Positions 8,320-31,200 of a stretch of 32,000 nt of DNA are shown piece by piece. Source of the DNA: an uncultured Alphaproteobacteria bacterium (GTDB lineage: Bacteria > Pseudomonadota > Alphaproteobacteria > Rs-D84 > CACZYB01). The stretch's first letter is position 1. The number at the start of each line of letters is the position of its first letter. The DNA is taken from contig CAKQHZ010000002.1 of the NCBI GenBank assembly GCA_934246625.1, positions 90,001 to 122,000 of the forward strand. The letters are read 5' to 3'. The position numbers and the translations under genes are program-made. The notes beneath the pieces were generated by a model. The model did no database searches. It was not told where the DNA came from and saw only the letters and a list, made by a program, of their open reading frames with translations.

Positions 8320-8320
8320 C

Positions 8321-8756: not shown

Positions 8757-8773
8757 ATCAATATCAAAGATAT

Positions 8774-8850
8774 GGCCTCGTAGCTCAGCTGGATAGAGCA
8801 ACAGCCTTCTAAGCTGTGGGTCAGACGTTCGAATCGTCTCGGGGTCACCA
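8774..8850 (+). tRNA. tRNA-Arg (anticodon UCU)
   Basis: Acceptor GGCCTCG/CGGGGTC, D arm GCTC-AGCTGGATA-GAGC, anticodon arm ACAGC-CTTCTAA-GCTGT, T arm AGACG-TTCGAAT-CGTCT, discriminator A, CCA. Confidence 0.93.
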
Positions 8851-9663: not shown

Positions 9664-9742
9664 AAAATTGGTAGTATTTATTTTAATTGATTTTTAGCAA
9701 AAATTTTGATATTTTATAATTAAAAAAGAAAGGACCCTTTAA

Positions 9743-13405: not shown

Positions 13406-13460
13406 TAAAAGTATATGATAAACATTAGTTATATAGATATATATATTTCAAATAGAATAC

Positions 13461-14069
13461 TTATTCTAAAGGATTATCAATTAACTCTTGAATAAAGTGT
13501 GTATTTGTATAGAAATCTTCATCTATTTTTAAAGAAATTATATTCTGCCAGTATTTTTTACTTACACTTGAAAATATTTCAATAATTTTTTTGTTATCAG
13601 GAACTTTTATATTAAATTTTGTATTAATTATGACTAGAATTCTTAAACTTTCACTTAGAACAAACATAAAGTCTTTACATAAGCACATTGCTTTATTACT
13701 ATCTTTTAAAGGATGAACAATATTGTCTCTCATAGATTTTATTGCTTTCGCTTCTTTAGATTTAAATAGGTTGTTGTAATCATTTATTACATCTAAAAAT
13801 TCGTCTTTATTACTTAACTCTTTAATTATGTAATCAAGATTAATTTTATTTGATTTACAAGGTTCAATTATAGATTTTGTGGAAATAATTAATCTTCTTT
13901 GGATGGCATAAAATGTATACAAATATTGAAAATTATTTGCCCTGTTAGTTCTTAAAAAATCATGTTTTAACTTTAAATCAAGTGCTATTAAATACATATA
14001 ACTATCTAAATATGCTTTTAATGCCTCAGACCAGACAATTTTAAGATTATTAAAAAATTCTTCTTTCAT
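13461..14069 (-). CDS. Hypothetical all-helical protein with HEPN-type Rx4H motif (possible Abi/HEPN RNase)
   Basis: 202 aa. RDNIVH (codons at 13713-13730) fits the HEPN consensus R-[NDH]-x-x-x-H and sits in the C-terminal half of a predicted helical protein. The gene call is firmer than the functional call. Confidence 0.55.
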   Translation of the reverse strand: MKEEFFNNLKIVWSEALKAYLDSYMYLIALDLKLKHDFLRTNRANNFQYLYTFYAIQRRLIISTKSIIEPCKSNKINLDYIIKELSNKDEFLDVINDYNNLFKSKEAKAIKSMRDNIVHPLKDSNKAMCLCKDFMFVLSESLRILVIINTKFNIKVPDNKKIIEIFSSVSKKYWQNIISLKIDEDFYTNTHFIQELIDNPLE

Positions 14070-14159
14070 TTTTTTCTTTCATAATAATGTTTTAATGTAA
14101 GATTAATTAATTTATTAATTATTTCAATCTTTAATTATAAATTTTCTTTCCCACTGGGA

Positions 14160-14348
14160 TTATTTCTTAGCTTTACCAAGTCTTGATTCTGGATTAAGAA
14201 CAAGGCTTGCAATCATTTGGACTGTATTATTGGAAAGGTTGTATTTCTTGGCATATTTAGCCAATACATGATAATAGATACTTTTCTTACTTGGTTGATT
14301 TTTCTCTGTTATACTAAGATCATCTATAACTCTATCCATTATTTCCAT
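14160..14348 (-). CDS. Small hypothetical ORF (62 aa), possibly a gene fragment
   Basis: Open frame upstream of the HEPN-like gene on the same strand. The frame stays open for 20 codons upstream of the Met with no alternative start. No clear RBS. Confidence 0.3.
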   Translation of the reverse strand: MEIMDRVIDDLSITEKNQPSKKSIYYHVLAKYAKKYNLSNNTVQMIASLVLNPESRLGKAKK

Positions 14349-14574
14349 ATAAAGGCTATTATAACCTATCCCATTTTGTTTAGTTTCTTCAATAATTGGA
14401 TCTCCATTTTAATCTAAAATGTTTTATTTATAATTATGGATTAAATTTTTCAATGAAAAAATAATGTAAAATACAAAACATAGAATAAACCTAATGTTTA
14501 GCGCAATTTTACGGACAATTTTGAAATAAAATGTAAAATTTTGATAAATGAATAATTACCCGTATAGTATGATA

Positions 14575-14688
14575 TTCCCGTGCGGGAAGAATTTAATCAA
14601 TTAAACAAGAAAAGACTATAAATATTACCGAGCGGGAATATTTAGGCTATTTTAATGATAAAAACATAAAATTATTACCGAACGGTAA
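14575..14688. promoter_or_regulatory. Three phased palindromic operator-like sites upstream of hipB
   Basis: TTCCCGTGCGGGAA (14575-14588), TTACCGAGCGGGAA (14625-14638), TTACCGAACGGTAA (14675-14688). Consensus ATT(A/C)CCG-N2-CGG(G/T)AA. Start-to-start spacing is exactly 50 bp. The last site ends 8 nt before the -35. Confidence 0.55.
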
Positions 14689-14696
14689 GATTTTAT

Positions 14697-14725
14697 TTGA
14701 TTATGCTTTTAAAACATGATATAAT
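14697..14725 (+). promoter_or_regulatory. Sigma70 promoter with extended -10 for the hipBA operon
   Basis: TTGATT (14697-14702), 17-nt spacer containing TGa, TATAAT (14720-14725). RBS AGGAAG lies before the ATG at 14749. Confidence 0.6.
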
Positions 14726-14748
14726 AAAGAAAAAACAGGAAGATAAAA

Positions 14749-14964
14749 ATGAAAAATTCAATAGATTTTGGCCGTTTGATAGAAGACTTTAGAAAGGCAC
14801 AAGGTTTAACACAAGCTCAACTTGCTTCATTATCAAATGTCGGAGTAAGATTTATTAGTGATTTAGAAAAAGGTAAGGAAACTTGCCAACTTCAAAAGGC
14901 TTTACATGTTGCAAGAATATTGGGGATACAATTTACAACAAACAATGTTAGTAAGGATAAATAA
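14749..14964 (+). CDS. hipB: XRE-family HTH antitoxin (HipB-like)
   Basis: 71 aa with the HTH LTQAQLASLSNVGVRFISDLEKGK. The stop overlaps the hipA ATG by 1 nt. Confidence 0.85.
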   Translation: MKNSIDFGRLIEDFRKAQGLTQAQLASLSNVGVRFISDLEKGKETCQLQKALHVARILGIQFTTNNVSKDK

Positions 14965-16205
14965 TGGCTAAAAGATTTTTAAATGTGTTCCTTTATGGAA
15001 AAAAAGTAGGAGCCCTAACTGAAACACCTTCATCATCATTAAGATTCACATATGATGAAAATGCTACTGAAGCAATATCCGTAAGAATGCCTATTAGAAA
15101 AGAAACTTATCCCAATAGTTATGCAAGACCATTTTTTGAAAATCTTACACCTGAATCTGAAATTAAAACCTTAATTGCTAAAAATATTGGAGTATCAGAG
15201 AATAATCCATTTTCATTGCTTGATAAATTAGGTGGAGATTGTGCTGGCGCAATTTCTTTGTATCGAGATGATAATGTTCCTTCTGTAAATAATGAAGAAT
15301 TAGTCGAAATTACAGATAGTGCTTTAATAAATATTATCAAGAAATTACCTGTTAATCCATTATTAACAACTGATGAAAATGCTAGATTATCTTTAGCAGG
15401 AGCTCAACCAAAATTTGCTATAGTATGTAAAGATGGAAAATATTATTATCCTAATGATAGATTTCCATCAACACATATTGTTAAAGTAGAAAATAAAAAC
15501 TATACAGGTTTACTTGAAAATGAATATTTCTGTATGAAATTGGCAAAAGTATTAAATATAGATGTTCCTAATGTGGAATTAAAGGAAGTTAATGGATTAA
15601 AATATCTTTTAATAGAAAGATATGATAGAGTTATTCATGATGATAGAATAGAAAGAATTCATCAAGAAGATTTTTGCCAAATATTAGGCGTATTATCTGA
15701 TAAAAAGTATCAACAAGATGGTGGACCATCAATAAAAAAATGTTATAAGGCTATACAAGATTATGTTTCTCAACCAGCTTTGAATGCTATAAAATTTTTA
15801 GATATAATTATGTATAACTATTTAATCGGAAATAATGATGCTCATGCAAAAAACTTTTCTATATTGCATTTAAAAAATAGAGATATTATGTTAAGTCCAT
15901 TTTATGATTTAGTATCTACAGAAGTATATCCAAATTTATCCCATAATTTAGCTATGAAAATAGGTGATCAACAAATTAGTGATAAATTACATTTAACAGA
16001 TTTTGGATTGCTTGCAAAAGAATTAAAAATCAAAGCAAATATTTTCTCTGAAATATTAGCTGGCAAATATTCTAATATCTGCAAATTAGCAAAAGATTTA
16101 GCCGTCTCTTGTAATAAGTTAGAATTAACTAAATCGCCAATATATGATAAACTAGTTAAGTTAATAACAGAAAGATATAATAAATTAATAAAAGAAACAA
16201 AATAA
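14964..16205 (+). CDS. hipA: HipA-family serine/threonine kinase toxin
   Basis: N-terminal VGxL coupling region (KKVGALTE), SLAGAQPKFA, ERYDRV, catalytic loop GNNDAHAKNFS and SPFYDLVST. All are characteristic HipA motifs. 413 aa. Confidence 0.92.
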   Translation: MAKRFLNVFLYGKKVGALTETPSSSLRFTYDENATEAISVRMPIRKETYPNSYARPFFENLTPESEIKTLIAKNIGVSENNPFSLLDKLGGDCAGAISLYRDDNVPSVNNEELVEITDSALINIIKKLPVNPLLTTDENARLSLAGAQPKFAIVCKDGKYYYPNDRFPSTHIVKVENKNYTGLLENEYFCMKLAKVLNIDVPNVELKEVNGLKYLLIERYDRVIHDDRIERIHQEDFCQILGVLSDKKYQQDGGPSIKKCYKAIQDYVSQPALNAIKFLDIIMYNYLIGNNDAHAKNFSILHLKNRDIMLSPFYDLVSTEVYPNLSHNLAMKIGDQQISDKLHLTDFGLLAKELKIKANIFSEILAGKYSNICKLAKDLAVSCNKLELTKSPIYDKLVKLITERYNKLIKETK

Positions 16206-16562
16206 ATGGCGTGGTTTGCAAAAGAGATTAGAGTTCCAGAATTAGGAATAGTGATATATCCGGAGGTAAAAGTTACAGTGACACATTCTCAGTCAATTTT
16301 TAGTTGTTATAATGCAAATAAATATTACAAAGATATTGTTAAAGAAAATTTAAAAGATTTCTATTCTGATCCAATTAATGAAAGAAAAGCAATTAATGCT
16401 TGTATTACCTTATATCATTTAGCTGATTGGTACTGGAAAGATGATCCTAAAAAGCAAGAAAAGAAAAAATCTGTTCCATATAGTTTAGCTTTAGCTGATT
16501 TAGCAAATGCATCAAAGCATTTTGAACCAAAAAGAACATATCTCTCTGGAAGTATTGAATGA
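16206..16562 (+). CDS. Hypothetical protein, third gene of the hipBA cluster (118 aa as read; frame continues past TGA)
   Basis: The ATG immediately follows the hipA TAA with a 0-nt gap. No family recognised; notable residues are LYHLADWYW and LANASKH. The in-frame TGA at 16560 is followed by 34 more open codons to TAA at 16665. Confidence 0.6.
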   Translation: MAWFAKEIRVPELGIVIYPEVKVTVTHSQSIFSCYNANKYYKDIVKENLKDFYSDPINERKAINACITLYHLADWYWKDDPKKQEKKKSVPYSLALADLANASKHFEPKRTYLSGSIE

Positions 16563-16669
16563 ACTAATAAAGCAAAGGTTTTAACTTTAAATCATGGAGA
16601 TCAAATAATAAAAATAGAAGATATGTTGCATGAAATAGAAGATTATTGGGATAAATTACTAAAATAAAA

Positions 16670-18430
16670 TTAATTAAATGCTTTTTTTAATTTTTCAGCA
16701 ATAAGTTTTCTTCTTTCGCTTATAAACTCTCTAAAATCTTTTATATCGGTATATTTAGAAGGAATAAGTTGTTTTTTACAATCAATACTATTTTGTGTAA
16801 TCCAATCTTTTAATGGTTTTTCTTTTTTAGATTCATTATCATTTCCATATAATAACTGAAGATTTAAGATGCTATTCCAATTATTTTTATCCAAATAAAA
16901 TTCTGTATCTTCAACTGAAAGATTTAATTTTTTAATATTGTTTTTACTAAATATAATTTCGGGATGTAAATGGTCTTTATGCTTTATGTCGCGGTAATCC
17001 GAACCATCATATAATAAAACCAAAATAGGAAAGGCATATCTAGAATCCTTTTGTTCAGTCAATAAACTTTCAATAAATTCATCATCAACATTTAGTGACT
17101 TTCTTGTTCCTTCTAACTTTTTTTTAATTTCAGAAATTGGAAATTTTTTATTTTTTGATTCTTTGATTACATCTCTTATATCTTTTAAAATAGAATCTGC
17201 TTGTCCTCCAAATATTTTTTTCAAGAATACAATATTTAACCACTTTAGGATAATATTACGATCTTCTTTATAATTAGTTTTTTTACAAAATCCTCTAGTC
17301 TTATTTTTTACACTTAAATAATAAACAATAAGAGCAACGGCATTATATGATGTGATTGTATTATCTGTATGCCCATAATTTTTTAGTAAAGTAAAAACTT
17401 CTTTAATAGTTGTTTTTACACCATTTTCTGTATTCCAATCATTTTCAAACGATGATAAACAATCTTTAGATAAATTGTTTATTTTAAATCTTACATCTTC
17501 GCTATAAATCAATAAAGCACATCTTACAATAAATTCTTTTGAAAAATTATAAAAGCCCATATTTTTAATTTCTTTTTCCAAATTATTAAATTCTAATCGT
17601 GCATCAATTTTTGACCAACTTGATATAATTGTAGATATTAGTAAATCAGAGAAAGATAATTTTTCCCCACCACTATTTGTTCTTATAAAGATTTTTAACG
17701 CTTTATTATAATCTTCTGTTTCTTCTAAATAGTAATTTATCAATGGTTTATCATAAATAATATTTCTTAATTTTGATATAGTGTCTTGTGCAAATTCATT
17801 CTGAGCAAATTGTTTTATAATAGTTGTTACCATATTTGATGGTGTTTGATAATTGGTACTCAATATGTCTTCAACTTTAAAAAAACGGGAATTTCCTCCT
17901 TTTTCTTCAAATTCTTCTTCTGTAAAAAAATAAAATCCATATTCCCTTTCATCATCATATTCTTTAATAGTTTTAATTTCTTCATCTGTATAGTCTTTAT
18001 ATTTTTTGCAAATATCTAAATATAATTTTCTTTTTGGAAAATTATCAATATTATCCAAACGTGAATAAGCGTTCTTATAAGCATATGATCCTTTTAATCC
18101 AAGATATAAAGCAGTTAATCTTTGTTGACCATCTAAAACAGCATAAAAACTTTGTATTCCTCTAGGATTAAATTGTGTAGCAATCTCTTTGTGATATTCT
18201 ATATATTCAGTAATAAATTGATAATACTTATATTTTTCTTTATTGTCTGTACTATTAACTTTCCAAAAAAGAAAAGAATTAATAGGAAAATCACACATCA
18301 AAGAATCAAACAATAATTCAATATCATTTGTCTTCCAAACAAATTCTCGTTGTATAGCAGGCAATAAAAATTCTCTTTTATCTATTTTTTCTATAACATC
18401 TTTAATAAAAAAAGGAGTTTGAAAACTCAT
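16670..18430 (-). CDS. GmrSD-like Type IV (modification-dependent) restriction enzyme, DUF262 plus DUF1524
   Basis: N-terminal ParB-like DUF262 motifs (LPAIQREFVW, LDGQQRLTALYLG). C-terminal His-Me finger-type DUF1524 motifs (KDHLHPE ... NLQLLYGNDNESK). RBS GGAGG. Confidence 0.85.
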   Translation of the reverse strand: MSFQTPFFIKDVIEKIDKREFLLPAIQREFVWKTNDIELLFDSLMCDFPINSFLFWKVNSTDNKEKYKYYQFITEYIEYHKEIATQFNPRGIQSFYAVLDGQQRLTALYLGLKGSYAYKNAYSRLDNIDNFPKRKLYLDICKKYKDYTDEEIKTIKEYDDEREYGFYFFTEEEFEEKGGNSRFFKVEDILSTNYQTPSNMVTTIIKQFAQNEFAQDTISKLRNIIYDKPLINYYLEETEDYNKALKIFIRTNSGGEKLSFSDLLISTIISSWSKIDARLEFNNLEKEIKNMGFYNFSKEFIVRCALLIYSEDVRFKINNLSKDCLSSFENDWNTENGVKTTIKEVFTLLKNYGHTDNTITSYNAVALIVYYLSVKNKTRGFCKKTNYKEDRNIILKWLNIVFLKKIFGGQADSILKDIRDVIKESKNKKFPISEIKKKLEGTRKSLNVDDEFIESLLTEQKDSRYAFPILVLLYDGSDYRDIKHKDHLHPEIIFSKNNIKKLNLSVEDTEFYLDKNNWNSILNLQLLYGNDNESKKEKPLKDWITQNSIDCKKQLIPSKYTDIKDFREFISERRKLIAEKLKKAFN

Positions 18431-18549: not shown

Positions 18550-19455
18550 CTATATTTTTTCTACATAAGATAGCATTCTATCAATAGCACCGTTAGTACT
18601 CTGTAAAACTGGAGCATTTAAAAGTCTTGCATAAACTTGCGTAGATTGTAATGACTTATGGCCTAATGATTTACCTATTATTTGCAAACTTGAGCCATTA
18701 ATTGCTTGATAGCTTCCAAGTGTTCTTCTTAGATCATGTATTCTAAGATTTTCTATACCTGCACGCTTTAGTAAAGCTTGCCAATGACGTTTAGGTTCAA
18801 CCAAATGACCACAAGCAGATGTTTTACTTGGAAATACCCATTCTGATGTAGTTGTTTGTTTCATTTCAGAAAGTAAAGCCAATGCTTTCATAGTTAATGG
18901 ACAATCCATACTTTCTCCATTCTTAGTCATAGGTATAAACCAAACACCAAGTTTAAAATCAATTTCTGACCATCTCATAGCAAGTACATTACTTCTCCGC
19001 TGGCCAGTATAAAGTGAAAGTAAGATATAGTTTCTAAACAACATATCTGGATCTTCAAATAATGCACTGAAAAATGGTTGTAATTCATCTGGAAGTATAA
19101 AACGTTCTCTTGATTTAAGTCTAAAATTCTTAATTCCATCAGTTGGATTTTTACCTAGATATCCCTACTCAATAGCACGATGATACATAGTCTTAATAAG
19201 TTTTAATGTATTATTAGCAGTTGTTCTCATTCCTGCACGATCAATGTAAGAAATAATCCTTTCTATATCTTGTCTTATAACCGAAGACATTTTCTTATAA
19301 CCAATAAAAGGATGAATTTTGCTTTTAAAAATATAATCATCATGTTCTATTGTTCTTGGTCTTTTATTGCTAACAGAATAATTCTCTCTGTAATATTTAT
19401 AATAGTCATCAAGAGTTATATCATGAGATGAAATAAAGTTACCTAAAACAGACAT
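18550..19455 (-). pseudogene. Tyrosine recombinase/phage integrase interrupted by one in-frame TAG
   Basis: The ORFs 19455-19165 and 19044-18550 are in the same frame, and the codons between them are open: ...YHRAIE*GYLGKNPTDGIKNFRLKSRERFILPDELQPFFSALFEDPDMLFRNY.... The catalytic residues are intact (TGQRRSN, HDLRRT, LGH, QVYA). RBS GAGGAG precedes the start. Confidence 0.85.
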
Positions 19456-19760
19456 AGTATTTGCTCCTCATCACGGCAGAAAATCAGGAAGAATTATAAA
19501 AAAAATGGTTGGATAAATTATCTCCTAAGATACTTGTAATTGGTGAAGCTAAGGATGAAAGCGATAATATATGTTATTACGAAGGTTATAATACTATAAC
19601 TCAAATGTCAACTAAAGATATTCTCTTTAATTCCGGAAATAATAGAGTAGATATATATACTTCAAATATAGATTATAAATTATCATTTGATTGCAATAAT
19701 AAAAATCTTTCTCAAATAGGAAATTGTTATTATAAAGGATCAATAATTATAGGAGAATAA
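19448..19760 (+). pseudogene. Possible 3' remnant of an MBL-fold (ComEC C-terminal-like) hydrolase gene, frameshifted
   Basis: One frame reads DIVFAPHHGRKSGRIIKK and stops. After an A8 run, the next frame reads LDKLSPKILVIGEAKDE.... This parallels the HHGS...P-K-x-x-I-x-G layout of MBL-fold C-termini. It rests on weak motif-level similarity only. Confidence 0.3.
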
Positions 19761-19853
19761 CTATGAAAATAGAAATGCCTTTTTATGACATTATTAATAG
19801 ATTTTTTACAGGAATAATCTTTTATTATGCAATAATAAGTAAATAGTTTTCCA

Positions 19854-19883
19854 TTGACTCTTAAAGATTAACTTTCATAAAAT
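19854..19883 (+). promoter_or_regulatory. Candidate promoter for the HU gene
   Basis: TTGACT (19854-19859), 18-nt spacer, TAAAAT (19878-19883). Confidence 0.4.
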
Positions 19884-19936
19884 ATCAGTGTTAGGCAATA
19901 AAACCTAAGAGTTTAATAAATAATAGGAGAGATATT

Positions 19937-20209
19937 ATGAATAAAACTGAATTTATTGAAGCTATTGCAAAAGAATTAGGAGCAACAAAAGCTGATGTTG
20001 CAAAATTCATTGCTGCAGAACAAAGTGTTATTGCTAAAACACTTAAAAAAGGTAAATCAATCCAATTGGTTGGTTTTGGAACATACTCAGTTGTAAAACG
20101 TGCTGCAAGAAAAGGTCATAACCCAATGACTGGTAAGGAAATTAAAATTCCAGTTTGCAAAGCTCCAAAGTTTAAACCAGGTAAAACTTTGAAAGATGCT
20201 TTGAACTAA
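19937..20209 (+). CDS. hup: HU/IHF-family nucleoid-associated DNA-binding protein
   Basis: 90 aa. MNKTEFIEAIA..., GFGTYSVVKRAARKGHNPMTGKEIKIP..KAPKFKPGK is the classic HU beta-arm. RBS AGGAG. Confidence 0.92.
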   Translation: MNKTEFIEAIAKELGATKADVAKFIAAEQSVIAKTLKKGKSIQLVGFGTYSVVKRAARKGHNPMTGKEIKIPVCKAPKFKPGKTLKDALN

Positions 20210-20212
20210 TAG

Positions 20213-20236
20213 AAGGCCTTCGAAAGAAGGCTTTTT
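20213..20236 (+). terminator. Rho-independent terminator of hup
   Basis: GCCTTC-gaaa-GAAGGC (GNRA tetraloop; the stem is extendable by flanking A/T pairs) followed by TTTTT. Confidence 0.75.
20220..20236 (+). repeat. Left copy of the 17-nt direct repeat TCGAAAGAAGGCTTTTT
   Basis: An identical 17-mer recurs at 24551-24567, and the surrounding roughly 25 nt are near-identical. Confidence 0.8.
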
Positions 20237-20259
20237 AAATCTTTAAATATCTATTTTGG

Positions 20260-20300
20260 ATGTCAATAGCATAATCAAAATTATCTTATGCTATTGACAT
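20260..20300. promoter_or_regulatory. Perfect 15-bp inverted repeat (operator-like) overlapping the -35 of the helicase-nuclease gene
   Basis: ATGTCAATAGCATAA (20260-20274), an 11-nt spacer, then TTATGCTATTGACAT (20286-20300), which is the exact reverse complement. Confidence 0.5.
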
Positions 20301-20323
20301 AGTTATTTATGAAAATGTATAAT
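20294..20323 (+). promoter_or_regulatory. Near-consensus sigma70 promoter of the helicase-nuclease gene
   Basis: TTGACA (20294-20299), 18-nt spacer, TATAAT (20318-20323). RBS AGGAG (20333-20337) lies 7 nt before the ATG at 20345. Confidence 0.55.
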
Positions 20324-20344
20324 CACTCCGTTAGGAGTTTTGTT

Positions 20345-23300
20345 ATGGTTAATAAAAAATTTTCACAATTAAAATTTGAAAAAAACTTTCTTGAGAAATT
20401 ACTAAGTAAGCTTACGGTTGGAAATGGACGTTCAATACATTTGAATGCGGTTCCAGGAAGAGCTAAAAATAGGCTTGATATTTCAGATTTAGATATAGCA
20501 TCAGTAAAACCTATATCGACAGATTTTTTAGATAAGCTAACTTCTAAAGAAAAATTTGAATATAAAATATCGTTTGATAGTAGTATATTAACAAAAGCAG
20601 ATGATGATTTAAAAAATAAATTATCAACTATCTCTAAAAAATTGGATGCTATAGTTTCTGATAATGAGGATATGTATTTAGAAACAGGTATAAAAAATTT
20701 TGGTTTTGGATATCCTTTAATTATAAAGGCAGATACAAAAGCCCAAAGAGTTATTGTTTCACCAGTGTTTATTTGGATGTTAGATATAAAAAAATCTAAT
20801 AAGAAAAATGAATGGATTATTTCTAAAACAGAAGATAGTCCAATAAAAGTAAATGAACTTCTTATTTCCCATATTAAAAATGATGAACAAATTGAACTTG
20901 ATAAATTAACATCAGAAGAATTAGATGATAATATTTTATCAAAGGAAGAAATTATTGCTTATTTAAATAATTTACTCAAAAAATTAAATTGTCATTGTAG
21001 TATAGATAATGTTTCACTTACAAAAAGTTTACTTACTAAAAAGGAATATGAAAAGTTAGCTAATAATGAGGCTTGGATACAATGGAGTGGTATTTTGGGA
21101 TTATATAAATCCCCTAAGGAAACAATTATAGATTCTGTTTCTGAATTGATAAAAAAACTTGAAAAATTTAATTCTGAAAGTCTTGAAATAAGTCCATTCC
21201 AGAAGTTAACAACAACATCTTTCGATATAGATTCAAGTAAACGAGAGATTATAGATACTCTTGATCATGATGAATTCAAAATCATTCAAGGACCTCCTGG
21301 AACGGGTAAATCTCAGGCCATTTCTGCAATTATTTCAAATGTTTTAGCAAATAAGGCCAAGGTTTTGGTTGTATGTGAAAAGAAAACTGCTTTGGATGTT
21401 TTAAAATCAAATCTTCAAAAAGAAAAATTGGATGAGTTTTCTATACTTATAGATGATGTTATAAAAGATAGAAAAAGTGTAGTAGATAAGGCCAGAAAAA
21501 TATTTGATGAAATAAAGTTTAATTATAGTCATTCATATTTTGATGATGATATTTTTAGCAGTACATATTCTTGTTTTTTAGATTTAAAAGATAAAGTAAA
21601 TGCGGCCTATGAAGAAACAAGTAAAAATATATTCTTAGGAAAAAATTGGAAAGATATTATTGGTGAGTATTTAAAAGTATCAAAAGAACATAACATAAAA
21701 GAAGTAATAGATAATTTCAAAAAATTTGCTTTTTCTTTTACAGAAGAAGAATTTAATACATACATTGATAATATTAAAAGAGGTATATTTTTACAAAATT
21801 CAATAAAATCAATTGATAAAAATACATTTTGTTACATTGATTTCAATGCATTTGATGATAAAATAAGTTTAAAACAAAAAAATGATATAGAAAGACAAAT
21901 AGATGAAGTTGAACATATTGTCAATAAAGCAAAACAGTATTTAAATTCTAATGATTTTTCTTGTTTAAATTTGAATATATTATCTCCTGAAGGAGTTATT
22001 AATAAAAAAATAGAATTAATTGATAATTGTATGCAATTCATTACATCTATAAATGAATTTTGTAATTCAAATCAAGATTTAACTGTAGATGATTACAAAA
22101 AAATTAAACTTTTGTTTGAAAATTATAATAAAGTTATAAAAAGTATAGATTCAAATTTGAATATTCTTGTTGATAATACTGTATTTGATAAGTTATCTAA
22201 TATTGTAATTATTCAATCTATTATAAAAAATATGTTAGATATTTGTGATAAATTTAGTATCCAAAATCTTAATCATAGTTTAAAGAACTTAGTTCTTGGA
22301 TGGTTTAATACTAAGTATAAAGAATATTTCAAAAATTTTAAAAAATTTAAAAGTCTTTTCTCTGAATTATATTCAAAATCTAATAAATATTCTAAATATA
22401 ATGAAAACGTTTCATTTATAAAAAAGTATAAAGAATACAAGCAATCAGAATTATTAGTTGATGATTTGAAAAATTTAAACTTGATATTAGATAATGATAA
22501 ATTGTTATTTTCAAATTCTTTATCGGAATATTATAATTCAATTATAGAGGCAAAGAAAACTTTAAACGAATATAATATAAATTGTAAATCTATAATTGAT
22601 TGTAAAGTATTTATCGAAAAAACAAATAAATCTATAACAGATATATTCAAGTTAATAACAAATGATATAAAATCGTCCTTAATTTCTATTAAAGATTATT
22701 TATCTCAACTTGATACAATTTTAAATAAGGTTTCGCTATTAAAAGATAATTTATCTCAACTTGATGATTATAATTCATGGATAAAATTTTATAAACAAAA
22801 TAAAAAGTTGATAAATGCTCTAGAAGAATATGATAATAATTCTTGGGAAAATATTTTTAAGACAGTTTATTTTTGTAGTTTTCTATATGCCTTTGAAAAT
22901 AATTCAAAGATATCTTTCAATAAAAATGACGGAAAATTAAAAAGATTAGATGAATATTGTAATAAATTACAATCCGACAGTATTGGCAGAATATATGATG
23001 TTTGGAATGAACGTAGAATAGATGCTGCGGACTATTTAGATTGTAAATATGGATTTAAAGCATTATTTGCATTAAAAAAGAATCAAAAATTTGGTAAACG
23101 TTTATCATTAAAACAAATTATAAATAAAGATTTCAATTCATTTACAGATTTATTTCCTGTTATTTTAGTAAATCCTATAGTTGCAAATACATTATTTCCT
23201 TTAAAACAAGGACTATTTGATATTGTTATATTTGATGAATCCAGTCAATTAAGAGTAGAAGATGTTTATACAGCTATGCTTCGTGGAAAATATAAAATTA

Positions 23301-24532
23301 TTGCAGGAGATCAGCATCAGATGCCTCCTTCAAATTATTTTGGAGCTAAAATAGAAGATGAAGATATGGATTCAGATTCTGATGATGAAATTAGGGATCA
23401 AGCTCAGTTAAATGCTGAATCATTGCTTGTATTTTCAGAATCTCTAAAATACAAAAATATATCATATTTAGATTTTCACTATAGATCACAACATCCATTG
23501 TTAATTCAATTTTCAAATGCTGCTTTTTATGGTGAAAATTTGTGTCCATTACCTGTAAAAGGAAAAGATTATACTCCAATAATTATGAAAGAAGTTAATG
23601 GAACATATTATGGAACACCAAAAAATATAAATTCTAAAGAAGCTGATGAGGTTATTAAAATTTTAGAATCAATAAATGAGGATGAAAACGGAAATATGCC
23701 TAGTGTAGGAATTGCTACATTTAATGTTCATCAAAGAGAACTTATTAAAGAGAAATTATATGATAAAGCATATTCTGATCCTAAAAACTTTGGTGTAAAA
23801 TTTGAAAAATTACAATCCAGTGGTCTTTTTGTTAAGAACTTGGAAAATATTCAAGGTGATGAACGAGATATTATTATTATTTCTACGACATTTGGAAAGG
23901 ATGAAACAGGTAAATTATCTGAAAGATTTGGGGTAATAACGCAAGAAAATGCATATAAATTGCTAAATGTTTTAATAACTAGAGCTAAAGATAAATTATT
24001 TGTTGTTACTTCAATTCCTGAAACAAAGTATTCTCAATATAAGGAGTTATTAGATAAAAATCATCAAAATAATAGAACTGCAATATTTTATGCTTATTTA
24101 TCATATGCAAAAGCTGTTTCAGAAAATAATATGGAATTAGTTAATTCTATATTGAGTGATGTATCTCAATTTAGTTATGATAGAAGTAGAAATATGCAGG
24201 GAATTTTAGGTACAAGTTTAGTAGATTCTCCATTCGAAGAAGAATTATATAATCAACTTTCAGAAGTTGTAGGAAAAAATAATATTCACTACAAATATAA
24301 AGTTGGAGGTTATACATTAGACTTTATGATCGAATATAACGGTAAAAAATTTGCTTTGGAGTGTGATGGTAAACAATATCCTTGTTTTAATCAAGCTTAC
24401 GCTGAAAATATTCAAAGAGAAAAACAAATAGAAAAATTTGGCTATAAATTCTATAGAATATGGTCAATTAATTGGTTTGAGAATGAAAAACAAGAATTAC
24501 AAAAACTAAAAGATTTTTTATCTAAATCCTAA
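20345..24532 (+). CDS. Large SF1 (Upf1/DNA2-like, AAA_11/AAA_12-type) helicase fused to a C-terminal Vsr/DUF559-like restriction-endonuclease-fold domain
   Basis: Start moved to Met13 of the ORF because the promoter -10 and RBS lie inside the 5' extension. Walker A QGPPGTGKS (21290-21313), motif II IFDESSQ (23231-), GDQHQMPP, motif V/VI GDERDIIIIS / LNVLITRAKDKLFVV. C-terminal GGYTLDFMIEYNGKKFALECDGKQY...FGYKFYRIWSINWF matches the DUF559/Vsr-like nuclease core. Confidence 0.85.
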   Translation: MVNKKFSQLKFEKNFLEKLLSKLTVGNGRSIHLNAVPGRAKNRLDISDLDIASVKPISTDFLDKLTSKEKFEYKISFDSSILTKADDDLKNKLSTISKKLDAIVSDNEDMYLETGIKNFGFGYPLIIKADTKAQRVIVSPVFIWMLDIKKSNKKNEWIISKTEDSPIKVNELLISHIKNDEQIELDKLTSEELDDNILSKEEIIAYLNNLLKKLNCHCSIDNVSLTKSLLTKKEYEKLANNEAWIQWSGILGLYKSPKETIIDSVSELIKKLEKFNSESLEISPFQKLTTTSFDIDSSKREIIDTLDHDEFKIIQGPPGTGKSQAISAIISNVLANKAKVLVVCEKKTALDVLKSNLQKEKLDEFSILIDDVIKDRKSVVDKARKIFDEIKFNYSHSYFDDDIFSSTYSCFLDLKDKVNAAYEETSKNIFLGKNWKDIIGEYLKVSKEHNIKEVIDNFKKFAFSFTEEEFNTYIDNIKRGIFLQNSIKSIDKNTFCYIDFNAFDDKISLKQKNDIERQIDEVEHIVNKAKQYLNSNDFSCLNLNILSPEGVINKKIELIDNCMQFITSINEFCNSNQDLTVDDYKKIKLLFENYNKVIKSIDSNLNILVDNTVFDKLSNIVIIQSIIKNMLDICDKFSIQNLNHSLKNLVLGWFNTKYKEYFKNFKKFKSLFSELYSKSNKYSKYNENVSFIKKYKEYKQSELLVDDLKNLNLILDNDKLLFSNSLSEYYNSIIEAKKTLNEYNINCKSIIDCKVFIEKTNKSITDIFKLITNDIKSSLISIKDYLSQLDTILNKVSLLKDNLSQLDDYNSWIKFYKQNKKLINALEEYDNNSWENIFKTVYFCSFLYAFENNSKISFNKNDGKLKRLDEYCNKLQSDSIGRIYDVWNERRIDAADYLDCKYGFKALFALKKNQKFGKRLSLKQIINKDFNSFTDLFPVILVNPIVANTLFPLKQGLFDIVIFDESSQLRVEDVYTAMLRGKYKIIAGDQHQMPPSNYFGAKIEDEDMDSDSDDEIRDQAQLNAESLLVFSESLKYKNISYLDFHYRSQHPLLIQFSNAAFYGENLCPLPVKGKDYTPIIMKEVNGTYYGTPKNINSKEADEVIKILESINEDENGNMPSVGIATFNVHQRELIKEKLYDKAYSDPKNFGVKFEKLQSSGLFVKNLENIQGDERDIIIISTTFGKDETGKLSERFGVITQENAYKLLNVLITRAKDKLFVVTSIPETKYSQYKELLDKNHQNNRTAIFYAYLSYAKAVSENNMELVNSILSDVSQFSYDRSRNMQGILGTSLVDSPFEEELYNQLSEVVGKNNIHYKYKVGGYTLDFMIEYNGKKFALECDGKQYPCFNQAYAENIQREKQIEKFGYKFYRIWSINWFENEKQELQKLKDFLSKS

Positions 24533-24543
24533 TATTGTAGATG

Positions 24544-24568
24544 AAAGCCGTCGAAAGAAGGCTTTTTT
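24544..24568 (+). terminator. Rho-independent terminator of the helicase-nuclease gene, near-copy of the hup terminator
   Basis: GCCGTC-gaaa-GAAGGC (one mismatch) flanked by AAA/TTT pairs, then TTTTTT. Confidence 0.65.
24551..24567 (+). repeat. Right copy of the 17-nt direct repeat TCGAAAGAAGGCTTTTT
   Basis: Identical to 20220-20236. Confidence 0.8.
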
Positions 24569-24569
24569 A

Positions 24570-24597
24570 TTGCATTATTTGATAGTTATGATATAAT
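24570..24597 (+). promoter_or_regulatory. Candidate extended -10 promoter for the 69-aa gene
   Basis: TTGCAT (24570-24575), 16-nt spacer ending TGa, TATAAT (24592-24597). Confidence 0.5.
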
Positions 24598-24668
24598 GAA
24601 CTCTGGATTTAAAATCCAAGTGAATTTAAACCAACTTGTCCTACTTAGTGGACTAAAAGGAGTCTATT

Positions 24669-24878
24669 ATGAATTTCAGTTTTAGTTTTAAAGATTATAC
24701 TATTTTCAGATTAAACGGTAAGTGGAGATTTTATTCTGATGATATAACTATTGAAAAGGAAGAGGCATTAGAAGTGCTAAATTACTTAAATAGTTTGGAA
24801 GTAAAGGATTATTGTAAAATTCCAGAATTTCTTGATTATTTCTATTTAAGAAGAAAATTTAGACTTGTAAATAAATAA
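24669..24878 (+). CDS. Small hypothetical protein (69 aa)
   Basis: RBS AAAGGAG lies 7 nt before the ATG, and the gene has its own promoter-like element. No motifs recognised. Confidence 0.55.
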   Translation: MNFSFSFKDYTIFRLNGKWRFYSDDITIEKEEALEVLNYLNSLEVKDYCKIPEFLDYFYLRRKFRLVNK

Positions 24879-24898
24879 GTTTAGTATATAATGAACCC

Positions 24899-25142
24899 AT
24901 GATGATAGTAAAAATCAATAAATAGGTTGAACTAGAATAATCGGTTTTAAAACCCTTTGATTTTAGCCATCTTGAGGCATGTAGGTCTGAGTTTAGAACT
25001 TATGTTTTTGCCACCCCATACAGCAAGATACAACTTAGATTTTCAAGAAATCCAGGATATCTACGATTTTAGAAAAGTTAGAATATTGGCACTGTAGACC
25101 TCACCAAAAATTTCAAGTCATCTTATGATGGCTTTTATTTTT
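24899..25142 (+). ncRNA. Candidate structured non-coding transcript or 5' leader (about 240 nt), class unknown
   Basis: A promoter-like TTGTAA-16-TATAAT (24865-24892) lies upstream and an intrinsic terminator at 25116-25142. No ORF of 60 aa or more on either strand across 415 bp. Long-range complementary segments are present (see findings). Confidence 0.3.
25116..25142 (+). terminator. Rho-independent terminator inside the tpsA upstream region
   Basis: AGTCATC-ttat-GATGGCT (7 bp with one G-U) followed by TTTTATTTTT. Confidence 0.6.
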
Positions 25143-25294
25143 ACCCTTCAAGGACCATTTCTGGTGATTATAGCAACCTTCTATCAACCTGCTTAGAATG
25201 GTTTTATGTGGAATAAAAACGTTAAAAAACTTCTTGCAAAATCAAATAAATAATGCTAAATTCCAACTCAGATTAATGACAATAAGAGTATAAT

Positions 25295-28200
25295 ATGTCA
25301 AATTTTAGCAAAATATTTCAGCTTTTTTCGAAAGGATTTTGCAAAAGTTTAATTTTTTATTTCTCTTTTTACTTAATATTTTCCCCTTTATTTTCTTTTC
25401 AAGTTTTTGCTCAAACTTTGCCAATTAATCCAATTCCCAACAATGCAACATTAGGCACTTTTTCAAATAATATTCCTGTTCTTAATATAACAAAACCAAC
25501 AACATCTGGGGTGTCGGTTAATAAGTTTCATAATTTCAATGTTGGTAAAGAAGGATTGATTGTAAATAATCTTAATTTACAAAATTATAATATAACTTAT
25601 AAATCTGCATTATCTAATCAACATGTCGAGTTTAATCCGAATTTTCGTAATGGTGATGCTGCTAAAATTATTTTGAATGAAGTTGTTTCAAATTCAAAAA
25701 CATTGATGAATGGATATACGGAAATTTATGGTCGTAAAGCAGATTATATTGTTGCTAATCCAAATGGTATAACTTGTAATGGTTGTGGTTTTATAAATAC
25801 ATCTAGGCTTTCTTTGATAACGGGATCATCTAATATTGTAAATGGAGATATAGAAAATTTTAATATAGCACCAACTGCCGAATTAAGAATTAATGGAGTT
25901 GGTGCAGAGAATTTCGCCTTTTATAGCTCCAGTCCAGCAGATATTGTTTCAAATGCAATAAAAATTTCAGGAAATATTTTATCAAATAGTGATTTAAGAA
26001 TACTATCAGGTAATGATAAATATAATTGGAAAAATCAAGATGTATCATCGAATAGTAATGTTAATACAGAACTTGCGGTTGATGTTTCAGCTCTTGGCGG
26101 TATAAAGGCGGGTAATATTAAAATTATAGCAACACAAAAAGGTTTCGGAATAAATCTTGATGGTGATGTTATTGCAGATACTGATAATATTGAAATTACT
26201 GCAGATGGAGAAATCAAAGTTAAAAATCTTGTTGCTCAGAATAATATAGTTACTACTTCTAATGATAAAATTACTGCTATTGATAATGGAGAATTGGTAT
26301 CAAATAACTTAATTTATTTTGATGCAGGAAATATTTTATTAAATAAAAGTAAATTAGTTTCCAATGATATATATTTGTTAAGTAATGAAGATTTTATCAA
26401 TAATACAGGTATTGTAAATTCAAATAACAATTTATTTATAGGAGTAAATGGAAATTTTACAAATTCTTCAAATATTATTTCTAAGAATAACTTTGAATTA
26501 CAAGTTCTTGGCAATATAAGTAATAAGAAAAATGCTAACTTAATTGCATATAATGATTTTGATATAATAACAAATAATGATTTAGAAAATATTGGAAAAA
26601 TAAATACAGGGAATAATCTTTTTATAAGTGCATTAAATCTAAACAATTATGGTCAATTACTTTCAAACTATGATATGGATTTATATATCGGTAATGATCT
26701 TATAAATTATCGTGGTTCAGGTATTTTAGCCGGTAATGATATACACCTTTATATAGGAAATAACCTTATCAATTACAAAGCTGATATTTATGCAGGAAGG
26801 GATTTAATTATCGAAGGAAGAAATGATTTAAGTGTTAATTATCAATCATTAGATACAAATAAAACTTATGATAACCCTTATATAGAGGCAGAAACAGATC
26901 CAAACATAACAGTTGTTAATATTCCATTTACATATACTGATGTTCCCGATGATGAAGATGTAAATCTTACTTTAACACTTGCAAATGGAGAAGTTGTTGA
27001 TATTCCACCAAGCTATATAAAAGATGATGCCAAAGCTGGAGATAAATTTGTATATAAAGGATATATATTTATTTTTGGAGAAGAAAGTATCACAGAAATT
27101 GACGTTCCAAATTCTGCATACCAAACTTGTGTAGGTGATGAATGTGTTGGAATACCACAAACAATTAAGAAAACCATATACAATTATAGTGGTACTGATA
27201 AATTTACGATAAAGGATAATAATGGCAACAACATTTCCTATACTGAAACTATACCTGCGGGTGATCCAAATGATGAAAAAATAGTTTTAGATAGTACAAA
27301 TGTTGTGGATAACAATGTATTAGATAAATTAAAAAATATTACGACTAATTATCCATTTATAAATAATTTTTTTAATAATTTCGTAAATTATGCTGGAAAA
27401 ATAGAGGCAAAGCGAAATATTGAAATTTCCTCAAATTCTATCACAAATAAAGGATTTGATTATAATACTGGAGATAAAGCTATAACAAAACATTATCACA
27501 AAATCAGAAATGAAGCCTGTGGTTGGATTTGTGGTTGGAAAGTTTTAGGTCAGGAAGAAATTGATAGTATAAATCTTAATAGTTTACCCTCATCAATTGT
27601 TGCTGGTGGAATAATAGCTCTTAATTCAACAAAAAATATTTTGAATCAAAACAGTATTCTTTCTTCAAAGGGAGATATATTTATTAAAACAAATAATCTT
27701 CAAAACCTTACTACAAGTGAAATTATAAATTTTATTGTAAATATGCAAAGAATTAAATTAAGAAAAAAAGGTTTAAAGATAAGAAAAAAAACTGAAAACA
27801 AACCTGAAATAACTAAAAAACGTGTTTATAATAAACAAAGGGCAACAATCCTTGCGGGTGGTAATTTATCAATTGTATCAAGTGAACATATAAAAAATGA
27901 TCAAAATGTAAATCCAAATGGAGATATTGTCGCTACTCTTACAAACAAAAATATAGAAGAAGCTGTTATCCCTGTTGATATAGAATTACCAGTAGGAAAT
28001 AATGGTCGTTTTAAGATTTCTGAAGGTAGTAAATATCTTATTGAAAATAATGTTCCATTTATAAATGTAGAAAATTATGTCGGAAGCGATTATTTCTTTG
28101 ATGGCAAAGGTGCTCTTTTTAATGGTGTTGATACGAATAAAATCATCGGGGATCCTGCCTATGAAACAAAGATAATTATGGATGCAATTTTAAAGGCAAC

Positions 28201-31200
28201 CCAGAAACACTATCTTGCTAATGATGGAAGTATTGGTAGTGATGCCGATCAAATGAAACAACTTTATGATAACGCATTAGAAGTTCGAGAAGAATTAGGT
28301 TTAAAAGTCGGTATTGCATTAAACAAAAGTCAGATTACAAACCTTAAAAAAGATATTATTTGGTATATTACAAAGGAAGTGAATGGTGAAAAGGTTCTTG
28401 TTCCAGAATTATATTTATCACAAGCAACCTTAAATGTAATAGATAATAATAATGGATCAAAAATTAGTGGGTTTAATGTAGGTATTGAATCTGATTATGT
28501 ATCAAACTATGGAAATATTACATCAAACAATATTCTTTCTGTAAAATCTAATAGCCTTGTAAATGAAAGCAATGATAATCAAGTTGCGACAATGAAATCC
28601 AAACGATTAACAACAATAGATTCTAAAAATATTGCAAACCTATCAGGTAATATAGAAGGTAAAATAACCCAAATAAAGTCCGATAATCTGATAAATCAAA
28701 CAAAAGTATTAAGTTCAGATTATGATGATAAATATGAACTTAAGAAACATACTGAAATAGCAGGAAATATTGCAACTATCAGTGGTGAGAAAGGATTGTC
28801 TATAGAAGCAAATAATGCTTTAGTTAATAGTGGAGCAAAGATAGAAAGTAAAGATGGCAATGTAAATATAAAAGCTGGAACTGCAACATTTAATACTATC
28901 CAGCTTCATAATAGGACAGAAACAAAAAAGACTAGTGATAACCTAGTTTCCAAAAAAACTAAAATATCAATCAAAGATACTATTGAAAATAAGGAAAGTG
29001 AAATAAATGCAGGTGGAAACTTTAATCTTTCAACATCAAATGATGCAAATTTTGCCGGAGCAAATATGTCGGTTGGTGGTGATGCATTGCTTGATATTGG
29101 TGGGCAAACCAATATCTTGGATGTGAAAGATACGGAGTTTAATTACTCCAAAACTACAAAGTCTTATGCTGGTGGAGTGTATTCTAAAAAGGATACAATA
29201 ATAGATGAAAACGAAATACTTAAAAATTCAAATATTACTGTAAAAAATGGATTAAATATTGTTTCAAATAAAGATGTTAATGTTGTAGCAAGCAATATAG
29301 ATATAGGTGGAAATGCAAATCTTCTTGCTGGATATAAACTTACAGAAAGTGGTGTAGAAAAGACAGGAAATAAAGCTAATGTAAATATAATAAATGATAT
29401 TGAAACTTCTTCTCATTATAAAAAACATGAAAAAATAAATGGTCTTGATTTTGATAATTTTGATATATCAGCAAGTAATGGAAAAATTTCTGCAAATATT
29501 GATATTTCTTCTGCTAAAGAAAATGAATTAAAAGAAAATACAAATAATGTTGTGTCATCAAATCTAAATATCGCTGGTAATTTAAATATATCAACAACAA
29601 ATGATATAAATATCAAGGCATCAAATATAGATGCTAGTGTAAATAGTTATTTGAATGCAGATAATGATATAAATATCATAAATGATTTTAATACCTCAAA
29701 AAGCGAAAATATAGAAAAAGATATTACAAAATCAGTTGGGGGAAATGTTGGAAATGGCTATGTTGATGTTGCTTATGCAACTAAGGCTTTGATTGATGCA
29801 GAACAGTCTGTAAAAAAAGCAAAAAAGGAATTGAAAAAGATTAAAGAGGCTCGTGATAGAGGTGAAGTAAGTAATGAAGCCGTAAAAGATGCAGAACTTA
29901 ATTTATCCCTTGCAATTATCAACTTTACAAATGCTGAAATTGCATTAGCATCAAGTATTGCTGGAGCAGCTTCTGCTGCTGCAAGTAGTTATGGAACAGG
30001 TTTTTATATTTCAGGTTCTTTGACTGATGATATAGATAAATACACTGAAAATTCAACTTTTTCACAAGCAGTAGGAAGCAATTTAACTGCTGAAAACATA
30101 TCTTTAAAATCTGGTAATAATATGACACATATAGGTTCAAATATCGTTGCAAATGATACAATTTCCTATGATATAACAAATAAATTAAAGGTGTTTGCAG
30201 GAGAAAATACTTACCGTTCTGAATCCTATAATGAACATATTACAGCAGGAGCATCATACGGAAATAATGCTGTTCAAGGTAATGTTGGATATGATAAATC
30301 AAGAAATGTTTCCAGTGGAACAAGTTTTACAAATTCCAATATAATTGCAGAAAATATTCAAATAAAGACTGGTAGTGATGCTAAATTTGATGGTGCAAAT
30401 GTCAGTGCAAACGAAAACCTTGTCGCCTCTGTTGGTGGCGATTTAATCATTGAATCAAAACAGGATTCTGATTATGCGAAGGGAAAAAGTTTCGGAATGA
30501 GTTTATCCGGTGGTGCGGGTGTTAGAAAAGAAGCTGTTGGTAAAGGTTCTGTTGGTATCGGGTTTAACACAGGAAAATCAAATCATGACAGTAGTTGGGT
30601 TAATGATATGACCGAGCTGACAGCGAAAAATGTTGATATAAATGTAGCAGGAAAAACTTCACTTACTGGTGCAATGATTGATGGAAGTGAAAGCCTCCAC
30701 CTTGCAACAAATGAACTTGAATTTAAAGATTTGCACGATTTTGAACGCTCAACTGAAACAGGATATGGTGTAAATACAGGTGTTGGTATCTCAACGAATA
30801 AAGAAAAAACAAACCTTCATCCAAACGGTGAAACTTCCCTTACTTTAAATGATAAAGGATATAATAAAGAGCAAATTACCCGTGCGACAATTGGCAAAGG
30901 TGTAATTGAGGTTGTCCAAGGTTCTGATTTGACAGGTCTTAACCGTGACACCTCAAAAGTCCAAGAAATTACAAAGGATATGACAACCGGCACCCTTAAT
31001 ACTACCGCAAATATAGATAACCGAGTATTTACAAGTGAAGGTAGAAATAGTATAGTAAATGAGCATAAAGACTTAAAAGAAAATACTATTATGACATTAA
31101 AAGATATGTCTGTTGCAGCGATTACAACTATAGGATTGTTATGGGGAGGTATAGAATATGCATATTCTTATATTTTAAATGAAGAAAAACCAAATATTAT

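Follow-up and report, generated by a model that had tools for sequence, protein, structure and literature searches.

A long gene in an uncultured member of the Alphaproteobacteria encodes a superfamily 1 (SF1) helicase joined to a C-terminal nuclease domain, and the locus raises the question of whether this is a new kind of one-gene immune system or a variant of one already described. The gene lies at 20345–24532 (+) of a 32,000-nucleotide stretch of DNA (contig CAKQHZ010000002.1, positions 90,001–122,000 of the forward strand; assembly GCA_934246625.1), which we refer to as the window. An earlier note, made from the sequence alone, had proposed an uncharacterised anti-phage or anti-plasmid system with Mokosh type II and Nhi as its closest comparators. 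We find that the helicase-nuclease is a distant new member of the catalogued Hhe/PDC-S37/ProA superfamily and not a new kind of system; its role is probably defensive.

Profile searches align the 1395-residue protein with this superfamily over nearly its whole length. The best-scoring PADLOC model, PDC-S37 (E = 7.3e-124, 413 bits), matches residues 87–1393 to model positions 91–1339 of 1550 and covers 94% of the protein. ProA (NF058533; E = 1.4e-119), the best-scoring model in NCBIfam, aligns residues 128–1392 to profile positions 489–1703 of 1903, and the Hhe models of NCBIfam (NF042953; E = 1.7e-78) and PADLOC (PDLC02194; E = 5e-61) have their best stretches at residues 914–1226 only and 865–1224, respectively. 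Both NCBIfam scores are far below the limits set for membership: 400.7 bits against a curated cut-off of 1500 for ProA, and 264.4 bits against an equivalog cut-off of 2000 for Hhe. Going by E-value and coverage, PADLOC would probably call the gene PDC-S37, despite a score of 413 bits vs the 2042 bits of a Pseudomonas moorei relative (locus L049, 1587 aa) that matches the model over its full length. The architecture is thus essentially covered by named models (PDC-S37, ProA and Hhe), and the description of the system as uncharacterised has to be dropped.

The scores of individual relatives outline how the superfamily is divided. The P. moorei protein scores 1466 bits on ProA and 1062 on Hhe; given its scores on both models, PDC-S37 and ProA describe essentially one Pseudomonas-type clade. 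A Myxococcaceae relative (L058, 1724 aa) scores 1399 bits on Hhe, 1243 on PDC-S37 and 1119 on ProA. The window protein belongs to a third, shorter clade (~1300–1430 aa), ~30% identical to the named ones. All 35 members of the window clade that were scored match PDC-S37 first and Hhe second, with modest scores. The clade amounts to ~300 clusters at 50% identity spread over many phyla, from Patescibacteria and Bacteroidota to archaea. Some homologues (P0097, P0103–P0108 and P0112) carry a GreA/GreB-like extra C-terminal domain after the nuclease, which hints at a link with RNA polymerase in part of the family.

Hhe, a validated one-gene anti-phage system, has the same design as the window protein. 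A preprint that attributes Hhe to the screen of Gao et al. 2020 gives it a Vsr endonuclease domain; the one-gene system acts against lambda, T3, T7 and PhiV-1, and the nuclease mutation E1731A inactivates it (10.1101/2022.06.16.496414). A study of Hachiman also names Hhe among defence helicases (PMC12278908). The window protein has the complete Hhe architecture in one gene: a DUF4011-type N-terminus, then an SF1 helicase split into AAA_11 and AAA_12 whose Walker A and motif II lie very far apart, and last a Vsr/DUF559-like nuclease at the C-terminus. It differs from Hhe-type proteins in its overall length (1395 aa vs ~1700–1900), in the length of the insert (longer in the Hhe type, at ~925 aa in L058, L063 and L065), and in that its lineage has lost a conserved nuclease histidine (see below). 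The C-terminal Vsr nuclease, which had been read as a departure from known helicase-nuclease immunity, is therefore no departure, since Hhe is a helicase plus a Vsr endonuclease in one gene. The ProA/PDC-S37 proteins (Pseudomonas-type DUF4011 proteins of ~1590 aa) likewise have the same architecture, and their models align with nearly the whole of the window protein, but their identity to it is ~30%, and the first ~488 and last ~200 positions of the ProA profile are missing from it. PDC-S37 is itself a candidate system and not a validated one. We found no publication describing 'ProA' in the literature searched, and 'PDC-S37' appeared in no full text searched.

The other helicase-nuclease systems fit less well. 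Mokosh type II and Nhi share with the window protein an Upf1/Dna2-like SF1 core and the logic of a helicase and a nuclease in one protein; they differ in nuclease type and position. PADLOC MkoA (E = 2e-34) and MkoC (E = 1.5e-18) both match within the helicase core only, and Pfam finds no phospholipase D (PLD) domain in the window protein at E ≤ 1, so we rejected Mokosh type II. Nhi was also rejected: no PADLOC Nhi model matches at E ≤ 1, and the nuclease is C-terminal rather than N-terminal. Hhe is accordingly the better comparator than either of the two originally suggested. CnuH, the UPF1-like helicase of CoCoNuT systems, has 'a large helical insertion' after Walker A that is partly coiled-coil, and in type III-B, for which RNA is the predicted target, a Vsr-like nuclease is fused directly to the helicase (PMC10542128). 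The window protein resembles type III-B CnuH in its UPF1-like SF1 helicase, post-Walker-A helical insertion and fused Vsr-like PD-(D/E)xK nuclease. CnuH, by contrast, is encoded with the McrBC-like CnuB and CnuC and usually has an OB-fold. Neither McrB- nor McrC-like genes occur in the window, and no neighbour recurs across 83 homologous loci as a type III-B partner would; we rejected CoCoNuT membership because the McrBC-like partners are absent from the window. Finally, the eukaryotic helicases Dna2, Upf1, Sen1 and Ighmbp2 are the best structural matches to the motor and share its SF1B motifs, but at 15–20% identity, and they have no 560-aa helical insert, no DUF4011-like domain and no C-terminal Vsr-like nuclease.

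To describe the domains we used AlphaFold models made separately for residues 1–460 and 291–1395, together with an alignment of 50 homologues. The protein can be divided into an N-terminal domain, a split motor with its insert, and the nuclease. The N-terminal domain (residues 1–290; 20345–21214, +) has a mixed alpha/beta fold with a pLDDT of ~80–90 over residues 40–280. The Pfam DUF4011 match is weak in the window protein itself (residues 13–174, E = 0.008) and present at E ≤ 0.01 in 28 of 35 clade members, with a best value of 5e-7. Its sequence is 50–60% identical to the homologues (n = 50), and its dN/dS is 0.14, as estimated, like the other dN/dS values given here, from a codon comparison of the window gene with the gene of its 77%-identical relative. 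Searched alone, it retrieves 306 cluster representatives from 1.84 billion, almost always at the N-terminus of proteins of 1150–1650 aa; Foldseek returned no solved structural relative from the PDB at E < 0.08. We conclude that the N-terminal ~290 residues are a diverged DUF4011 domain. It is not the featureless region implied by the earlier description, given its conservation and the matches in 28 of 35 clade members.

The motor itself is an Upf1/Dna2-like SF1 helicase, as had been claimed. The model of residues 291–1395 (mean pLDDT 81) contains two RecA-like domains. Walker A (motif I, GPPGTGKS; residues 316–323; 21290–21313, +) is invariant in the 50 homologues, as are D964, E965, S967 and Q968 of motif II (DESSQ, residues 964–968; 23234–23248, +). 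The remainder of RecA-like domain 1 and all of RecA-like domain 2 (residues 937–1260; 23153–24124, +) include motifs III (GDQHQMPP, residue 988), IV (HYRS, 1045), V (QGDERD, 1170) and VI (NVLITRAK, 1208). The full set of motifs I–VI in invariant columns and the two-RecA fold place the protein in SF1B. Pfam matches AAA_11 at residues 296–364 plus a second stretch (E = 1.2e-13) and AAA_12 at residues 1030–1222 (E = 6.6e-17). The best Foldseek matches are Dna2, Upf1, Sen1 and Ighmbp2 (E = 3e-7 to 1e-6, probability 1.0), and the list extends to SETX and ZNFX1 over a whole range of E = 3e-7 to 1e-4; sequence-profile matches return the same group, Upf1, Sen1/SETX, Ighmbp2 and ZNFX1 among them. The helicase core evolves under strong constraint (dN/dS 0.08). 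Walker A had been put at residues 328–335 and DESSQ at ~976; these are the same sites, numbered from an ATG at 20309 and so offset by 12 codons from the 1395-aa form.

The distance from Walker A to motif II is 641 residues, in agreement with the ~640-aa insert reported earlier. Most of this distance is an insertion in RecA-like domain 1 (residues ~376–936; 21470–23152, +) that AlphaFold models as helices only, mostly at a pLDDT of 85–92, with long helices at residues 701–767 (67 residues) and 863–901 (39 residues) and no predicted beta-barrel. On the strength of this confident all-helical model we rejected a simple coiled coil, a low-complexity tract or a disordered one. The segment is Asn/Lys/Ile-rich, as had been noted, and is modelled as a folded helical domain rather than the probable coiled coil that had been suggested. 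Its composition is largely a consequence of low GC in a variable stretch: the insert core (residues 441–810; 21665–22774, +) has 18.4% GC, vs 25–27% elsewhere in the gene and 27.6% in the whole window, and this fits relaxed constraint drifting to AT-rich codons. Poor conservation is limited to the core (residues ~441–810), which is 6–26% identical to homologues with many gaps and is the fastest-evolving stretch of the protein (dN/dS 0.34); residues 811–963 are conserved. Nor is the long insert special to this protein. In 18 relatives from many phyla (26–46% identity) the gap between Walker A and motif II spans 425–925 residues, and the long ATPase-core insert is a trait of the superfamily.

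The C-terminal domain (residues 1296–1395; 24230–24529, +) is a DUF559/Vsr-like PD-(D/E)xK nuclease, again as claimed. Pfam MTES_1575 (PF18741) matches residues 1297–1392 with 69.3 bits against a gathering cut-off of 38.2; DUF559 matches residues 1317–1389 weakly in the window protein (E = 0.0065) and is found in 32 of 35 clade members. A profile of the domain also matches the structure of a DUF559 'endonuclease-like protein' (3HRL; E = 2.3e-4), in an alignment that takes in the D-F strand, the E-x-D-G strand and the R...L..G-(F/Y)-x-V-x-R-x-W segment. The LDF, ALECDG and YRIWS motifs of the earlier description lie at residues 1325–1374. Acidic and basic residues are retained at E1298, E1300, D1326, E1339, D1341, K1343, R1358 and K1360.

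The conserved active-site set D...ExDG..H is incomplete in the window protein. D1326, E1339 and D1341 are present, and the position of the final histidine, which is His in 47 of 50 homologues, is Pro1346 (24380–24382, +), converting ECDGKxYH to ECDGKQYP. The replaced residue aligns with the DG..H histidine of 3HRL and probably corresponds to His69 of Vsr, an essential residue that is important for catalysis. Residue 1355 is Asn where 48 of 50 homologues have Asp, and R1324T, Q1317K, S/T1348F and Q1359E are further departures from near-invariant residues. All six substitutions are common to the window protein and its 77%-identical relative P0002; Pro1346 is confined, among ~120 homologues, to this lineage (the window protein, public entry P0001; P0002; and their cluster mates). 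The nuclease nevertheless has the lowest dN/dS in the protein (0.064; overall 0.17), so the domain is still needed, and dN/dS is silent as to what for. We conclude that the domain is maintained under strong purifying selection and that its chemistry may deviate from what is usual in the family.

The gene is a self-contained transcription unit with its own promoter and terminator, as the earlier note had it. The mechanical open reading frame (ORF) runs from 20309 to 24532 (+; 1407 aa) and ends with a TAA stop codon (24530–24532). The ATG at 20345, which gives the 1395-aa form, is the better-supported start than the ATG at 20309, on four grounds. A sigma-70-type promoter (TTGACA, 18 nt, TATAAT; 20294–20323, +), the sole 12/12 match in a consensus scan of 19800–25400, falls inside the longer ORF; an AGGAG ribosome-binding site (RBS), read directly from the sequence (20333–20337, +), stands 7 nt 5′ of ATG 20345; the start Met aligns with the equivalent Met in 50 of 50 homologues; and public gene calls from 9–11 contigs give the identical 1395-aa protein (P0001, 100% identical). 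Downstream, a hairpin with a T-run (24543–24567, +; -12.4 kcal/mol, z -3.8) serves as terminator; it is missing from the list of the consensus scan owing to one mismatch in the stem.

The terminator also forms part of a repeat that encloses the gene. A 25-nt direct repeat (D4) occurs at 20212–20236 and 24543–24567, 23 of 25 positions being identical, and its 17-nt exact core is found at these two sites alone in the window (0.03 expected). The left copy is the terminator hairpin and T-run of the upstream HU gene (20212–20236, +; -15.9 kcal/mol, z -5.1). At a spacing of 4331 nt, the copies precisely frame the promoter, the helicase-nuclease gene and its terminator. Because the repeat stands on both flanks, it suggests a cassette-like acquisition or insertion of the helicase-nuclease behind the HU gene. 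When metagenome contigs were scanned for exact matches to the right-flank sequence, no empty site was found, and every contig having the downstream 69-aa ORF also has the helicase. Between the left repeat and the gene is a perfect 15-nt inverted repeat (I19; 20260–20300), with arms ATGTCAATAGCATAA (20260–20274) and TTATGCTATTGACAT (20286–20300) that are 100% complementary across an 11-nt spacer. As a hairpin it folds with -18.4 kcal/mol (z -6.0), its right arm includes the -35 hexamer TTGACA of the promoter, and the window holds no second close copy. The palindrome is plausible as a candidate repressor operator, judging from its position and symmetry; no regulator conserved with the family adjoins the gene, and no cognate regulator for the palindrome was identified.

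The window places the gene in an accessory region beside a defence island, as reported. Its genes are, in order, an efflux operon, tRNA-Leu and tRNA-Arg, a serine recombinase, a type III restriction-modification (RM) system, a helix-turn-helix (HTH) regulator with HipA, HEC-05, a split integrase, an 83-aa fragment, HU, the helicase-nuclease and a CdiA-like locus. The island (9067–18430) adjoins the two tRNA genes (8195–8850) and holds the serine recombinase, the type III RM genes (Mod, 9743–11335; Res, 11336–13405), an unannotated 202-aa ORF, a 118-aa ORF with the HTH-HipA pair, and a GmrSD-like HEC-05 gene (599 bits) 2 kb upstream of the helicase-nuclease. The closest relative, P0002 (77% identity; L090:133–6405), follows immediately after two same-strand neighbours, a GmrSD-like gene and a 109-aa ORF, so the helicase-nuclease and the GmrSD-like gene may be recurrently associated. 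Between the island and the HU gene lie a tyrosine integrase (18550–19455, -) split into two ORFs of 96 and 164 aa, probably a pseudogene, and an 83-aa ORF (19509–19760, +) whose one match is to the C-terminal end of PADLOC PDC-M48B; both appear to be what is left of an integrative element or defence system that has decayed.

Two further features of the window lie apart from the gene. Downstream, a two-partner-secretion (TPS)/CdiA-like locus (25295–31935; continued at L001:14951–24188) comprises a 2096-aa exoprotein with a TPS domain and haemagglutinin repeats, then three small ORFs, then a ShlB/POTRA transporter; the small ORFs 3′ of the CdiA-like gene might encode immunity proteins or else represent orphan toxin tips. 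At the other end, the tRNA-Leu predicted by ARAGORN (8195–8279, -), which Rfam did not confirm at its gathering score, extends into the beginning of the ORF for the outer-membrane efflux protein (6788–8236, -; mechanically called from GTG 8236), whose true start is probably further downstream. Taken by themselves, the 27.6% GC of the window and its outer-membrane efflux and TPS genes would point, as a guess, to a low-GC Gram-negative bacterium such as one of the Fusobacteriota.

Across the family the helicase-nuclease is a stand-alone gene. Clustering of the neighbours in 83 related loci gave no family present in more than 7 and nothing consistently adjacent, so there is no conserved partner gene; in these loci the family does not keep the small downstream ORF (24669–24878), the HU gene or the 83-aa ORF as neighbours. 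Nor did the 83 loci show conserved housekeeping synteny: contexts are mixed and often rich in mobile or defence genes. Some homologues have as neighbours a DNA methylase, PLDc_2 and a serine recombinase; another locus has FtsK-like, AAA_14/DUF4143, BstA_C, an integrase fragment and type IV secretion genes; further loci IS elements, a Panacea toxin-antitoxin pair, a diversity-generating retroelement (DGR) reverse transcriptase and ResIII, or HipA with an integrase. The 136 proteins within 3.5 kb in 26 Bacteroidota-type loci include ~10 strong defence matches, as a raw count with no background rate (Wadjet JetC/JetD, type I and type IV restriction, a type II methylase, LmuB of Lamassu, bSEFIR, PDC-S49, PDC-S01 and HEC-01A). 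Relatives of the superfamily, annotated DUF3320 or DUF4011, are carried by 457 plasmids, mainly of Klebsiella and Ralstonia, and by only one of 50,697 phage records. Some neighbours recur on a smaller scale. A DUF3768 gene is near the helicase-nuclease in two unrelated loci (L081:5199–5525 and L088:13594–13923), and L088 also has an HTH regulator with HipA, as in the window. In six loci of a sub-clade at ~34% identity from gut archaea and Firmicutes (L031–L041, L062), an ~800-aa protein encoded 0.3–3 kb downstream may be a clade-specific partner.

What, then, does the protein do? The gene has a helicase-nuclease architecture, intact ATPase motifs, purifying selection on every domain, its own promoter and terminator, no partner gene, and a patchy cross-phylum distribution in variable contexts. 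We favour, with moderate confidence, stand-alone ATP-driven helicase-nuclease defence against invading phage or plasmid DNA as the function. Several points weigh against this. At ~30% identity, and with 401 vs 1500 bits on ProA and 264 vs 2000 on Hhe, the transfer of function is an extrapolation; the experimental protection on which it draws was seen with Hhe, a distant relative. The DNA (vs RNA) substrate and the 5′→3′ polarity are predictions, and canonical DNA cleavage is uncertain in a domain whose sequence has departed from the near-invariant His and from Asp at 1355. The neighbours of the Bacteroidota homologues are mostly diverse metabolic genes, and two homologues are singletons among housekeeping genes (fmt/gap-pgk-tpi; secDF/znuABC). 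In every P. aeruginosa isolate, moreover, a DUF4011 gene flanks the defence hotspot cDHS1 (PMC10250203), and core presence of a ProA/PDC-S37-type gene is unusual for a defence gene. The same P. aeruginosa gene, the housekeeping settings of some homologues and a fold nearest to Dna2 and Upf1 would suit a Dna2-like housekeeping or stress helicase-nuclease that repairs or recombines host DNA ends or flaps and has no immune role. We consider this distinctly unlikely for a family that is patchy across phyla with no conserved synteny in 83 loci, whose nearest functionally tested relative, Hhe, is anti-phage, and whose window member has integrase remnants and a restriction cluster on one side, a contact-dependent toxin locus on the other, and a direct repeat around it.

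The state of the nuclease raises another alternative, which partly overlaps with the defence model: an impaired or rewired domain would leave the protein mainly an ATP-driven translocase, a roadblock or a sensor that uses the nuclease fold as a DNA-binding module, or would cleave by non-canonical catalysis. The change of His1346 to Pro at the position of the 3HRL histidine and the five accompanying changes, all retained in the 77%-identical relative, argue for it; the intact acidic and lysine core and the lowest dN/dS of any domain argue against it, with the reservation that the latter speaks to need and not to purpose. We hold this reading to be unlikely. That the lineage is a rewired Hhe-like branch (its immunity relying not on canonical Vsr-type cleavage but on ATP-driven translocation or roadblock, a new catalytic arrangement, or signalling via the helical insert) and also a self-contained mobile cassette is a compound proposal that we regard as rather unlikely. 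Very unlikely, in our estimate, is an RNA target, in which the Upf1-like motor would strip or scan transcripts and the nuclease cut them, as proposed for CoCoNuT CnuH. RNA helicases (Upf1, Sen1/SETX, Ighmbp2 and ZNFX1) are among the profile and fold matches, and CnuH offers the precedent of a post-Walker-A insertion and, in the predicted RNA-targeting type III-B, a fused Vsr-like nuclease. The McrBC-like partners of CoCoNuT are absent from the window, however, and Dna2, the top fold match, acts on DNA. DUF559/Vsr-type nucleases of known activity likewise act on DNA, which weighs against an RNA substrate. So do the candidate triggers of Hhe from T7, seven class II DNA-metabolism genes; the authors read this result as activation via the functions of the triggers and not as direct recognition of each protein, and in an assay built around abortive infection they take the toxicity of g40 of phage Bas63, seen only with Hhe present, as evidence that it is a trigger (10.1101/2024.10.10.617714).

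Under the favoured model of defence against invading DNA, the Upf1/Dna2-like motor would load on single-stranded or replicating foreign DNA and translocate 5′→3′ with ATP, as the relatives and the general properties of SF1B helicases suggest. Cleavage by the C-terminal nuclease would follow, perhaps with collateral toxicity like that of abortive infection. The T7 and Bas63 trigger data for Hhe support this picture. The DUF4011-like N-terminal domain and the fast-evolving helical insert might act as sensing or autoinhibitory modules that gate this activity, and a repressor at the -35 palindrome may additionally gate transcription.

The finding is mostly corrective: the gene follows the Hhe/PDC-S37/ProA design, and existing defence-annotation models already detect it. 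It also documents a distinct, widespread and shorter clade of ~300 clusters that lies below the curated NCBIfam cut-offs. None of the papers searched explains by what mechanism proteins of the Hhe type detect infection; the obvious candidates for a sensor are the conserved DUF4011-like domain and the helical insert with its rapid evolution. The His-to-Pro variant, kept under strong purifying selection in this lineage, is a ready natural test of whether the family needs its nuclease chemistry.

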